UHGV virus genome: UHGV-0180316
Source of the DNA: a virus
DNA: 38,696 nt
Direction: 5' to 3' (one strand)
Shown here piece after piece: positions 3,741 through 5,974 of the stretch. A program made the translations under genes and the position numbers. Below the pieces are notes generated by a model that saw only the letters and a program-made list of their open reading frames with translations, did not search any database and was not told where the DNA came from. How positions within the stretch are numbered: the stretch's first letter is position 1; every line of letters starts with the position of its first letter.

Positions 3741-3900
3741 TGGTGCGGAATGGTGCAACTTTTTTTATTAACATACTGAAAATACTGCAAAAATATGTTA
3801 GAGCCTGCATCCTCATAGAAGCAAAAACAATTCAATTAATTCAATAACTTAACCATCATTCTGCACCACGTTGCACCACGCACCCGGTGCAGGGGGTCCG
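3741..3900. promoter_or_regulatory. candidate attP region: repeated GGTGC(A)/TGCACC motifs flanking an AT-rich core
   Basis: TGGTGC at 3741 and 3751; CTGCACCACG at 3861 and TTGCACCACG at 3871; inverted GGTGCAG at 3886. AT-rich 3757-3860 with an AACATA...TATGTT inverted repeat. Immediately 3' of int. Confidence 0.4.
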
Positions 3901-3908
3901 CCGCACAG

Positions 3909-3948
3909 CCCGGCAGAGGTCAAGCGCTTCTGCCGGGAAATTTTTTAT
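3909..3948 (+). terminator. putative intrinsic terminator downstream of int
   Basis: CCCGGCAGA / TCTGCCGGG 9-bp stem, 11-nt loop, followed by AAATTTTTTAT. Confidence 0.4.
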
Positions 3949-3968
3949 AAAAATTGGGTAAACGCTCC

Positions 3969-4001
3969 TAAAAACAAAAAGGGCTGATATTGTATCAGCC
4001 C
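3969..4001 (-). terminator. intrinsic terminator ending the minus-strand late/cargo transcript
   Basis: GGGCTGATA-ttg-TATCAGCCC hairpin followed on the minus strand by TTTTTGTTTTT. Confidence 0.6.
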
Positions 4002-4036
4002 TGACACTACTACCTAATGTGGTAACAATAAAGTAC

Positions 4037-4228
4037 CTATTTGTTATTCATTGCCATATTGGGGTGCATATGACACAGCAGACGCCAGCAGTCAAGTAAG
4101 TCGTCAAGCTCCTGACTATACAAGCGTTCGGAGGAAGCATTATTCAGAATATAATCTATAGTCTTAAGTGCCTGCTTCTCTGTTTCTTCCGAAGCGTTCA
4201 TGCGCCATTCCTTATACTCCATAATCAC
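4037..4228 (-). CDS. hypothetical small protein (low-GC island)
   Basis: 63-aa ORF, low-GC codons, overlaps the upstream gene stop (ATGA). Confidence 0.4.
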   Translation of the reverse strand: MIMEYKEWRMNASEETEKQALKTIDYILNNASSERLYSQELDDLLDCWRLLCHMHPNMAMNNK

Positions 4229-4560
4229 TCCTGCACAAACTGCGATGCAATAGCCTGTAGCTTGTCCACATCGCTTTCATCAAAGATGATACCTAATATA
4301 GGTACAGTACCAGTCTTATGTACGGCGTCTTTAATACGGGCGAAAATAACATCCGGTTTAACAGAACCATCAGCATTCAGACTGTCAAGAAAGCCAAGGA
4401 TAGGAGTAAACTGTTCAAGCAATGCTTTAGCTTTTGTCTGTATAACCGGCATAGCCAGGTACAATCCTACTTTCTGCAAGCCGCTGCTTTGAGGTATCAG
4501 CTCTGACTCTATGTAGGTACAAACAGCCAGACTAAGATTTTCCGCCGTTATTCTGGACAT
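4225..4560 (-). CDS. hypothetical protein (low-GC island)
   Basis: 111-aa ORF tightly packed after the Gly-zipper gene; no family recognised. Confidence 0.45.
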   Translation of the reverse strand: MSRITAENLSLAVCTYIESELIPQSSGLQKVGLYLAMPVIQTKAKALLEQFTPILGFLDSLNADGSVKPDVIFARIKDAVHKTGTVPILGIIFDESDVDKLQAIASQFVQE

Positions 4561-4562
4561 GG

Positions 4563-5138
4563 CTAGCCTTCATTTGTAGCGGCTGCAGTGGGCGCCGTCC
4601 AGGAATTATACCTGCTCATAACTTCCGGACAGATGGCACTTTTGGGAATTACTGTCTGGGTAATAGCCCCAAGAGTAGTATTGATGGCCGCAACAGCATT
4701 ATTAAGCTGAGAGATGCCACAGCCGCAAGTCTGTGCCACATTATCTATTTTCGCCCCAAGCTCAGCCCTGACAAGTTTTTCCCGCAAAGCGGCTGCCTCA
4801 GCATCACAAGCCTGCTTAGCTTCCAGGACTGCCACGCGCTCACGATTGGAAGCGGCTTCCTGCGCAATAGGAGTAACATAGGCAAAGACCTCGTCCCGCA
4901 GGTTTTTGTTCTCAGCCCTTGTGGCCTGATACAAAACTGCATCCTGATTGTCAGAATACTTCTGCGCAGTCAGTTCCGCTATCTTTGCATCCTTTTCAGC
5001 AATGACACTGGCGCAGTTATTACCACCTAAAATGCCGCCAAGGCCCCCGCCGTTACCATTAAGAAGAGACAAAGCCGTACCAGCAATGCCAAGTCCAAGG
5101 CCTGTTCCAGCTATGCCTTTGCTTGCGAATTCAGCCAT
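4563..5138 (-). CDS. glycine-zipper (GxxxG-repeat) N-terminal protein with coiled-coil middle and Cys-containing C-terminus
   Basis: N-terminus KGIAGTGLGLGIAGTALSLLNGNGGGLGGILGG with no signal peptide; RBS GGAGGAT upstream; low GC. Confidence 0.5.
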   Translation of the reverse strand: MAEFASKGIAGTGLGLGIAGTALSLLNGNGGGLGGILGGNNCASVIAEKDAKIAELTAQKYSDNQDAVLYQATRAENKNLRDEVFAYVTPIAQEAASNRERVAVLEAKQACDAEAAALREKLVRAELGAKIDNVAQTCGCGISQLNNAVAAINTTLGAITQTVIPKSAICPEVMSRYNSWTAPTAAATNEG

Positions 5139-5219
5139 AAATAATCCTCCTGTATGGTAGTAGTGGCCTCACTATACAGGGGGGAAGATCAGCAGGAAAT
5201 ATATCTGTGGACACACGTG

Positions 5220-5477
5220 CTACTTTTTGCCCAGCTTGGCCAGACGCCCCGCAGGAGTAACAAGAATAAACCGTGAACCACAGCGTTTGCAACGCCAGAT
5301 ACTCTTCCTCGCATATTCCAATGGATGCTGTCCAGTGGATTCATCAGGCATTGTACGCTGGCAATGCAGAGGCCCGTCAGAACAAACAGGGCACGTATAA
5401 GAAGGAGTCGCCGCAACAGCACTGGGCAAATGTGGAAAAGCCAAAACCATAACAAGAAGGAGAAGACTTCTCAGCAT
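5220..5477 (-). CDS. small secreted protein with two CxxC pairs (zinc-ribbon-like)
   Basis: Signal-peptide-like N-terminus MLRSLLLLVMVLAFPHLPSAVAA, then CPVC...CKRC; AAAGGAG RBS; own upstream intergenic region of 250 bp. Confidence 0.5.
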   Translation of the reverse strand: MLRSLLLLVMVLAFPHLPSAVAATPSYTCPVCSDGPLHCQRTMPDESTGQHPLEYARKSIWRCKRCGSRFILVTPAGRLAKLGKK

Positions 5478-5728
5478 AATATTACTCCTTTATTTAATTT
5501 CGCCGTATCCATGCGAAGTTTTATCGTGTGTGACATTATGAAATCCTCTTCCAAGCATAAACCGACACATAAGGCGGCATGTTGTTGTGCGCGGTGCCGC
5601 CGCCAGTGTTATAAATGCTATGACTGTGAGTATTGTTAAAATGTATTCTATCGTAATAAGTAGCGTTGTCTGCAACGCCATTTTTAGACGGATTATGTGT
5701 TACAGTATCACACAATAAAGCCAGCGTG

Positions 5729-5947
5729 CTAATCAACCAGACTAATTTTCTCAATTTTGCCCCGTACCTCAAGAATATCAAGATACTTCCGCATTGTATC
5801 GGCCTGCATTTTCAGGAGACATAAAGGACAGTTAGGTGTGAACGTGAGCGCGCCAGATTCATATCTGGTTATAAAAGCTGACAGTCGTTCGTACCGCCCA
5901 CGTAACTGCACGTATTCCTCAACCACTCTCTGCTTCCAGTCTTCCAT
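5729..5947 (-). CDS. hypothetical small alpha-helical phage protein
   Basis: 72 aa; AAGGAGG RBS 7 nt upstream; first gene of the low-GC island. Confidence 0.5.
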   Translation of the reverse strand: MEDWKQRVVEEYVQLRGRYERLSAFITRYESGALTFTPNCPLCLLKMQADTMRKYLDILEVRGKIEKISLVD

Positions 5948-5974
5948 TATATCCTCCTTTCGGGGCTTTTTATT

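Follow-up and report, generated by a model that had tools for sequence, protein, structure and literature searches.

The 38,696-nucleotide (nt) virus genome UHGV-0180316, analyzed here over its whole length and referred to below as the window, appears to be a complete temperate myophage of ~38.7 kb, and contigs of 38.2–38.8 kb from human gut metagenomes share its genes. Between the last tail gene and the integrase lies a block of lower G+C content (GC) with five minus-strand open reading frames (ORFs). Read along that strand, these encode a 72-amino acid (aa) protein assigned to the Sequestin family, an 85-aa zinc-ribbon protein, a 191-aa glycine-zipper protein (gz191), and two small proteins of 111 aa (p111) and 61 aa (p61). 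All five ORFs named in the original prediction, which was made from the letters of this stretch, are present in the ORF list, and each has homologs elsewhere; hence, they are not chance ORFs. The coordinates of these genes and of the neighboring features are collected in Table 1. On the evidence described below, positions 3906–5955 are very probably a horizontally acquired accessory ("moron") island lying in the terminator of the late operon, with counter-defense as its one identifiable function.

Table 1. Features of the island, its flanks, and the main lysis cassette (positions in the window)
Feature	Position	Strand	Details
Left arm of late-operon terminator hairpin, surviving	5953..5966	-	GCCCCGAAAGGAGG; left junction of the island
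Sequestin cassette	5656..5951	-	296-bp indel, from alignment of the window with five relatives
72-aa Sequestin-family protein	5729..5947	-	PF21825; predicted 3'cADPR sponge
Tail-fiber 3'-end relic	5536..5652	-	38 codons (5539-5652), ending in ..NTGGGTAHNNMPPYVSVYAWKRIS*; no start codon, no upstream body
85-aa zinc-ribbon protein	5220..5477	-	Hydrophobic leader, residues 1-23 (AVA-A); four-Cys ribbon (CPVC..CKRC)
gz191, 191 aa	4563..5138	-	Glycine-zipper N-terminus, Gly/Asn linker, long helix, C-terminal motif
p111, 111 aa	4225..4560	-	Obligate partner downstream of gz191; 2-nt gap, translational coupling predicted
p61, 61 aa	4037..4222	-	Acidic helical protein, third operon gene; called as 61 aa on ten contigs (63 aa from GTG at 4228)
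Intrinsic terminator of the island operon	3970..4002	-	10-bp stem (4002-3980) with 5 G-C pairs, then TTTTGTTTTT; kept in L001-L010
Second G+C-rich hairpin, last island element	3909..3937	+	12-bp stem, T-run on the plus strand
attP region (right flank, not cargo)	3810..3905	.	GGTGCA/CTGCACC repeats, AT-rich core
Tyrosine integrase (flank)	2754..3740	+	PF00589, E = 8.8e-13; phrog_1, E = 3e-34
XkdX-like gene, 35 aa (left flank, outside the island)	5975..6082	-	Last tail-module gene; phrog_1382, E = 7e-7
Endolysin, lysozyme-like	26214-27053		Pesticin/lysozyme-like domain (PF16754)
262-aa ORF, lysis cassette	25432-26220		Unannotated
Holin-like protein	24890-25642		phrog_1544; own Gly-rich N-terminus
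97-aa membrane ORF, lysis cassette	24600-24893		

The original prediction described a fall in GC to roughly 40% across 3745–5950. The fall itself was confirmed, but its depth had been overstated: the interval has 45.9% GC against 58.5% elsewhere and is the lowest 2.2-kb stretch of the window in sliding windows, and 300-bp windows in the trough at ~3750–6000 range over 41–52%, compared with 54–64% on each side. With 1-kb windows, the bins over 4001–6000 come to 46.5% and 46.1%, most of the genome lying at 55–66%. The right edge is at ~3906 and not at 3745, the sequence at 3745–3905 being the AT-rich attP region. The refined island, 3906–5955 (2,050 bp), has 46.2% GC, which corresponds to z = −4.2 against all other 2,050-bp windows; its middle part, the 191-aa gene, is at ~50%. 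GC at third codon positions (GC3) is 40–53% in the island genes and 61–73% in the integrase, tail, sheath, terminase, and endolysin genes. Since the z score and the GC3 shift remain once attP is left out, the low GC is not that of the AT-rich att site alone. The low-GC island is thus genuine, although milder and shorter than first described.

Evidence for acquisition also comes from relatives that have the flanks and lack the island. The genes upstream of the island encode a tail-collar fiber (PF07484), a tail-fiber assembly protein (Tfa), and the XkdX-like protein, the last of which is 94–100% identical in all relatives, island-bearing or not. A scan of IMG/VR with the Tfa protein gave 17 loci in which XkdX is shared together with Tfa, either whole or as its C-terminal part; the full-length Tfa matches, 11 in number, have 84–93% protein identity. 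None of these 17 loci encodes p111, p61, gz191, or the zinc-ribbon protein. In the relatives L053 and L059–L062, XkdX gives way within ~200 bp to a hairpin, a GGTGCA-repeat att region, and an integrase, and L059 and L061 also retain genes past the integrase. The hairpin of the island-less relatives is a complete terminator, GCCCCGAAAGG..CTTTCGGGGC, and homology between them and the window breaks inside it, at 5954–5957. Only its left arm survives in the window, where the GGAGG of that arm is now the ribosome-binding site of the Sequestin gene. On the other side, the island-less relatives resume at TGCGGCGG, equivalent to window positions 3898–3905, which puts the right junction at ~3906; similarity to relatives with a different int/att module (L001, L003, and L010) ends at ~3898. 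In these three, the integrase/attP module has been exchanged as a unit, with the breakpoint just past the second hairpin of the island; for the one locus that allowed scoring, L010, integrase identity is 56%, and the att arms are not the same. Other relatives have unrelated sequence at the position of the island, which is the behavior of a hotspot.

The claim that this region is horizontally gained cargo, in an accessory hotspot bounded by the last gene of the tail module and by attP/int, is therefore upheld by the deviant composition and by same-flank relatives without the island. As findings that would count against it, the original prediction had named beforehand a composition not significantly different and conservation of the island as core sequence; the composition is significantly deviant, and the island is not core in the relatives. 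In being a discrete deviant block at the end of an operon beside attP, the region resembles known morons and accessory hotspots such as the lambda b region, the P2 hotspots, and the toxin genes beside attP in Gram-positive prophages. With these, and with anti-defense hotspots such as the one in N4-like phages, it also shares absence from relatives, terminators of its own, and independent gain and loss of single genes. It differs from known morons in that it has no demonstrable promoter of its own, and with the late terminator broken its expression may be late and lytic rather than lysogenic.

The gene next to the left junction is the one for which a function can be predicted. According to the original prediction, none of the five proteins matches a known family; the 72-aa protein contradicts this, as it matches Pfam PF21825 with 75.6 bits (cut-off 24.8; E = 2.8e-21) over profile positions 1–58 of 61, and phrog_774 with E = 5e-18. 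The same gene is labeled PF21825:Sequestin on the contigs of relatives. The hidden Markov model searches proposed in the original prediction were run with Pfam and PADLOC, and also with PHROGs and NCBIfam, and this was their one real match. Sequestins bind 3' cyclic ADP-ribose (3'cADPR), the signal of type I Thoeris, and thereby enable phages to escape, and the E12A, Q47A, and R61A mutants of SequestinA are inactive (bioRxiv 10.1101/2025.07.12.664507). A crystal structure of a Sequestin domain has also been described, and such genes gather in hotspots (10.64898/2026.06.04.730250). The size of the protein is within the range of the tested Sequestins A–D (65–87 aa), and in an alignment with these validated proteins and three relatives, R7, E11, Q48, and R62 are invariant and correspond to the SequestinA pocket residues R8, E12, Q47, and R61. 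The protein thus has in common with the family (PF21825, formerly "crAss001_48 related protein," which includes T4 Y16O) the profile, the size, and the Arg/Glu/Gln/Arg pocket. It is only 23–33% identical to the tested Sequestins, however, and the loop between its helices has three inserted residues and a CPLC motif. A sequence and profile search of the PDB with the Sequestin returned nothing. Taken together, the profile match and the pocket residues clearly mark the 72-aa protein as a Sequestin family member, and its predicted role is that of a 3'cADPR sponge that blocks type I Thoeris. Among the functions that the original prediction had offered, anti-defense is hence supported for one gene.

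The Sequestin gene lies in a cassette that appears as a 296-bp indel. The cassette is present in the window and in L007–L009 and is missing from L001–L006 and L010, which are otherwise near-identical there. In L007, its ends carry an imperfect direct repeat (TACGATGGAAGAC / TACGATAGAATAC). The cassette together with XkdX is also common to L064, at 84.6% nucleotide identity; L064 is a different, unrelated phage with 44–50% GC, and the two diverge right after. Sequestin homologs that are 33–37% identical were further seen 1.3–2.2 kb downstream of the gz191 gene in L013 (8172–8363), L015 (8149–8325), and L012 (7906–8109). In L013, a Sutterella prophage, the homolog starts where the endolysin gene ends and is followed by an Rz-like gene; L012 comes from a bin labeled Coriobacteriaceae. 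These occurrences suggest recurrent acquisition of anti-Thoeris genes in this phage group.

Between this cassette and gz191 lie the relic of a tail-fiber gene and the zinc-ribbon gene. The relic is 71% identical (tblastn) to the C-termini of three intact collar-type fiber genes in the Spirochaete prophage L022, where these stand upstream of L022's own gz191/p111 pair. A 38-codon remnant that lacks the body of its gene suggests that this part of the island came by recombination within a fiber gene, and the relic and the zinc-ribbon gene look like the scar of a fiber-end module swap with a lower-GC phage. An ORF at 5490–5681 was rejected as a gene, since it runs over the relic in a different frame and starts within the 296-bp indel.

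The 85-aa zinc-ribbon protein is 100% identical in L001–L010. The original prediction called it secreted, and the protein does have a hydrophobic leader with an AVA-A motif (19-residue Kyte–Doolittle hydropathy peak of 2.11, residues 5–23). An exhaustive search showed that it belongs to a small family of 63–105 aa with the ribbon as the only common feature. Among the 13 sequences read, most are without a leader, which is found in only two near-full-length homologs (P0241 and P0243); secretion therefore remains uncertain. The CPxC...CxxC spacing is shared with MqsA/YgiT-type and other four-Cys zinc ribbons, which are weak best matches, but all of these matches are far below the cut-offs, and the protein has a leader that these lack and no helix-turn-helix (HTH) domain. 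In NCBIfam, the sole match of the island was a subthreshold MqsA zinc finger (15.3 bits vs 61.8). Other scans of the island gave nothing: neither Rfam, tRNA, and repeat scans nor blastn against INPHARED phages returned a match, and PADLOC matched none of the island ORFs. Considering the cassette, the fiber scar, and the operon that follows, the island is a composite of at least three separately acquired or mobile parts and not one unit.

The strong intrinsic terminator that the original prediction placed at 3969–4001 was confirmed. The internal promoter it described at 5690–5660 did not hold up: the TTGATT and GATACT elements are really at 5736–5704, with a 21-nt spacer. The number of promoter-like sites in this region is that of chance (five, against an expected 3.4 ± 1.8), and expression independent of the late operon, including in the lysogen, accordingly finds no computational support. 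The candidate promoter moreover falls inside the 296-bp indel and is missing from most relatives that still carry the downstream genes. All island genes point in the direction of the late operon, and no other terminator was found between XkdX and the island genes. Given this, and the loss of the right arm of the late terminator, the simplest account of how the island is transcribed is read-through from the tail operon.

The remaining three genes form an operon. They are separated by gaps of 2 nt and have their ribosome-binding sites inside the preceding gene, an arrangement that would couple their translation. The third gene had been described as encoding 63 aa (4037–4228, GTG start); that ORF exists, but gene callers on ten independent contigs give 61 aa with an ATG at 4222. 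The first 24 residues of gz191, MAEFASKGxAGxGLGLGIAGTALG, are near-invariant from Sutterella to Christensenellaceae phages, the remainder being ~30% identical, and the C-terminus has a conserved ICPExMxRYNSWxAPT motif. The DNA for the N-terminus varies synonymously between phyla, including AGC and TCA serine codons, which argues for selection on the peptide. Folding of the 5' leader of gz191 was no better than that of shuffled sequence (z = −1.0).

In an AlphaFold2 model, gz191 has a disordered Gly-rich N-terminus, one 122-residue helix (42–163), and a short tail. The helix shows a heptad periodicity of 0.66 against a background of 0.46 and contains conserved cysteines. Both p111 and p61 are small, acidic, and helical. 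None of the three proteins matched Pfam, PADLOC, or NCBIfam or a PHROGs family; for ten divergent homologs of gz191, p111, and the third gene, no PHROGs match was significant, two weak matches of the Bacteroides DAC23 homolog having E ~0.005–0.009. PDB sequence and profile searches with gz191 and p111 alignments gave nothing, and BFVD returned uncharacterized phage proteins only. The fold search with gz191 was uninformative, the model being a single long helix, and a literature search on the N-terminal motif and on glycine-zipper phage proteins found nothing relevant. In layout, gz191 shares a Gly/Ala-rich N-terminus, a long helix, and a C-terminal motif with the i-spanin Rz, the T4 RI antiholin (signal-anchor-release), HK97 gp15, and class I fusion proteins. 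The likeness is confined to layout, as none of these resembles gz191 in sequence or profile and no lipoprotein partner was seen. The features of a holin or antiholin are not found in gz191, which has borderline hydropathy (1.52), matches no Pfam or PHROGs holin family, and is not adjacent to the endolysin. For a spanin the layout would be compatible, but no lipobox was seen on reading p111, p61, and the ORFs embedded in gz191, a reading that did not include a dedicated lipobox scan.

The gz191/p111 pair is far more widespread than the island. Homologs of gz191 fall into more than 2,304 clusters at 90% identity; a Pfam domain is found in none of them, and where a name is given, which is rare, it reads "hypothetical." Among genomes of 185,579 species, members were found in Sutterellaceae, many Clostridia, and Spirochaetales, with most homologs lying in phages assigned to Clostridia. 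Identical copies of the 191-aa protein are present in 229 data blocks of public assemblies; the p111 and p61 genes follow in every case, and the tail fibers and the int/att module around them vary. Among 51 fetched loci matching gz191, 27 have a p111 homolog directly downstream, and these span Sutterellaceae, Clostridia, and Spirochaetales. The third gene has a counterpart as well: p61 is 33% identical (pairwise E = 4e-9) to a 62-aa gene in the same position in L013. A tblastn search of INPHARED with gz191 and p111 returned only gut phages without annotation and, in Bacteroides DAC phages, genes named "hypothetical." These DAC phages are virulent and have the same pair, in one phage with the same arrangement as judged by eye, and the gz191 homolog there retains the C-terminal motif ICPEPMQRYNSWEAPT. 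Folds similar to p111 are present in crAss-like phages. The pair recurs side by side in phages of at least four bacterial phyla. Its wide spread, virulent phages included, weakens a purely lysogenic-conversion reading, which had also been among the functions suggested at first.

The genomic position of the pair varies. It stands directly upstream of holin–endolysin–Rz in L013 and L016 and of holin–amidase in L031, and directly after the endolysin in L017, L027, and L035. In the Christensenellaceae phages L028, L033, L036, and L041, it opens the late operon, ahead of the small terminase gene. In L072 it is at the end of an operon, and in L070, a Clostridia phage, the module is among large genes that may be structural, the annotation of the neighbors being uninformative. 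In the Duodenibacillus locus L014, the pair is opposite in orientation to both flanking blocks of structural genes and would there be an autonomous unit; a promoter and terminator scan of this unit was uninformative. A neighbor census, which took in 31 loci and 136 flanking ORFs, showed lysis genes as the commonest annotated neighbors, at about one-quarter of the loci (Phage_lysozyme, 3; Phage_holin_4_1, 3; and Amidase_2, Amidase_3, Phage_holin_1, r1t holin, and ELLD), and terminase, integrase, and sigma-region-4 genes were also present. Small HTH or sigma-70 region-4-like genes are often directly upstream of the pair (L017, 5680–5913; L031, 5602–5898; L044, 5438–5680; L022, 5664–5897). The upstream gene in L017 matches Sigma70_r4 with 26.8 bits, and such genes were met at two loci of the census. 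These are hints of dedicated regulation of the gz191/p111 module in prophages of Clostridia and Spirochaetes.

Among the chromosomal homologs of gz191, the closest come from Sutterella and Duodenibacillus genomes, and in prophage junction contigs host genes follow directly after the 61-aa gene, which together make a member of the Sutterellaceae the likely host. Homology to the prophage–host junction contigs L006 and L007 stops at window 3810–3823, which places the putative attP crossover near these positions. The main lysis cassette of the phage is outside the island, at 24600–27053, upstream of the small terminase gene; the idea that the island itself is the lysis cassette was consequently rejected. 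No spanin was recognized in this cassette, although the likely host is Gram-negative.

Based on these observations, we propose the following course of events. The cargo would have entered the terminator hairpin that ends the late tail operon, just before attP and the integrase. With the right arm of that terminator lost, transcription from the tail operon would read through into the island and stop at the island's own terminators. By homology, the 72-aa Sequestin would form an antiparallel dimer whose two pockets sequester the 3'cADPR made by the Thoeris TIR protein ThsB, so that ThsA would stay inactive and the phage would escape type I Thoeris. The glycine-zipper N-terminus of gz191 may anchor in, or insert into, the cytoplasmic membrane, from which a coiled coil of ~18 nm would reach out through the envelope, and p111 and p61 would be its soluble partners. 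Located there, the module would serve superinfection exclusion or lysis control, and such an accessory role at the envelope is our best guess from the modeled architecture. Tentatively, and with appreciable doubt, gz191-p111(-p61) could be a new and very widespread phage system that acts on the envelope through a fusion-peptide-like N-terminus and an 18-nm coiled coil. If so, it may belong to a new class of exclusion, lysis-timing, or membrane-remodeling factors and may be portable between phages of monoderm and diderm hosts.

Several points weigh against parts of this account. The island-less relatives are 84–88% identical in the flanking DNA and are not isogenic with the window, and the polarity of the event, insertion rather than deletion, rests on the half-hairpin. 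As no promoter could be assigned, read-through is the simplest reading and no more than that. The hydrophobic segment of gz191 is borderline for a transmembrane helix (hydropathy 1.52, residues 8–26), and the predicted local distance difference test (pLDDT) score of AlphaFold2 for it is ~40. There is no annotated homolog of gz191, p111, or p61, and we infer the envelope function from architecture. By a rough estimate, the association with lysis genes is no more than about twice that expected by chance, and lysis cassettes also adjoin moron hotspots.

More specific roles for gz191-p111-p61 have to be weighed against this background. The module could be a superinfection exclusion system expressed by the prophage, with a membrane-anchored protein that would keep DNA from entering or bar access to the receptor, like HK97 gp15, T4 Imm and Sp, or lactococcal Sie2009, which we consider possible if somewhat doubtful. 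The island would then chiefly be a moron that protects the lysogen and has a promoter of its own, in line with the original prediction. Such a system would fit a module that is non-essential, with close relatives that do without it, and that sits at the prophage end beside attP. The oppositely oriented, seemingly autonomous unit in L014, the small HTH or sigma-region-4 gene that often precedes the module, and the likeness of a weakly hydrophobic N-terminal anchor with an extended helix to type II exclusion proteins point the same way. Set against this, the window has no promoter above chance level, the genes are co-oriented with the late operon without a terminator between, and PADLOC gave no match; virulent Bacteroides DAC phages have the module as well, and folds resembling p111 are found in crAss-like phages, although virulent phages such as T4 encode exclusion proteins too. 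An accessory lysis module, that is, a timing or antiholin pair comparable to T4 RI and RIII or a spanin-like protein with a fusion peptide and a coiled coil that helps to disrupt the envelope, seems unlikely. T4 RI has a signal-anchor-release N-terminus with a periplasmic domain, and RIII is a small cytoplasmic protein; the Gly/Ala-rich, weakly hydrophobic N-terminus and Cys-bearing coiled coil of gz191 would suit such a scheme. So would the frequency of lysis genes in the 31-locus census, the six loci in which the module adjoins lysis genes (L013, L016, L031, L017, L027, and L035), and the lack of a recognizable spanin in this phage. Yet the lysis cassette of the window is 20 kb distant, L013 and L016 carry a separate Rz-like gene, and the existence of island-less relatives means that the module is not the sole spanin or holin. 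Most homologs, moreover, are in phages assigned to Clostridia, for which no outer membrane is expected, the Christensenellaceae phages have the module before the small terminase gene and not beside lysis genes, and neither a lipobox partner (on reading p111 and p61) nor a holin or spanin family match was seen.

Two further readings concern the island as a whole. Anti-defense genes cluster in hotspots (10.64898/2026.06.04.730250), and the zinc-ribbon protein, gz191, p111, and p61 might be further immunity inhibitors that travel with Sequestin. Sequestin homologs within ~2 kb of gz191 homologs in L012, L013, and L015 are consistent with this, as is the small, acidic, helical nature of p111 and p61, which many inhibitors share. 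The Sequestin cassette, however, is gained and lost independently of the rest, and most loci of the pair have no Sequestin nearby, with one in only one of the 31 censused loci; gz191 looks membrane-associated and, with 191 aa, is atypical for a sponge or inhibitor, and the four proteins do not occur in the part of the Sequestin/Lockin/Acb5 screen tables covered here. An island devoted entirely to anti-defense is thus improbable. Least probable by far is that the region is core phage sequence, a structural fiber accessory or fiber module whose low GC is local noise or an att site. It does follow directly on the fiber, Tfa, and XkdX genes, it holds a fiber-like C-terminal coding remnant, and in L070 the module is among large, possibly structural genes. 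But none of the 17 relatives with the same fiber-assembly genes has the region, the z score of −4.2 and the GC3 shift persist without attP, and the fiber remnant is startless and only 38 codons long. Depending on the phage, the module is moreover found at the tail end, the lysis cassette, the terminase, or an operon end, and no PHROGs structural match is significant, the DAC23 homolog matching phrog_366 weakly (E = 0.005). The core-sequence reading is already contradicted by the island-less relatives and the composition, and acquisition of the island as a moron remains our preferred reading.

Some other parts of the window deserve mention. The tail-fiber genes (6606–9319) are mosaic in L001–L010, in which the 191-aa gene is identical and the neighboring island genes are 97–100% identical. 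The identity of the collar fiber ranges over 55–100% among these contigs, and some carry Gp53-like or Phage_tail_APC genes instead, a pattern that points to frequent exchange of fiber modules beside the island. Within the fiber region, the minus-strand ORFs 8169–8726 and 8510–9319 overlap by ~200 bp, and the former (185 aa, GTG start) may be spurious or a programmed alternative product. A second lower-GC stretch (48–51.5%) at 33186–36001 surrounds a CI/S24-type repressor (34061–34756) and contains four ORFs without a family match (33186–33764, 33979–34386, 34760–35338, and 35459–36001); it may be a second cargo or immunity hotspot. A local dip in GC to 51.8% at 27411–27979 holds an 81-aa Cys-rich ORF with CxxC-type motifs (27411–27656) and a 104-aa multi-pass membrane ORF (27665–27979), and is adjoined by a DNA methyltransferase gene (27976–28833).

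The Sequestin gene and the moron island are of a known kind, and the potentially novel element of the locus is the gz191/p111 module. The pair is among the more abundant phage gene pairs of gut metagenomes, yet it has no entry in Pfam, PHROGs, PADLOC, NCBIfam, or the PDB. The natural variants, namely phages that carry the complete island, those that lack only Sequestin, and those without any of it, are a comparison set for the function of the module. The locus is also a clean natural example of the gain of a counter-defense gene in gut phages. The presence or absence of the Sequestin cassette among near-identical phages, together with its sharing with L064, would imply that selection by Thoeris-type TIR systems is ongoing in the Sutterellaceae, a poorly studied clade of the gut.

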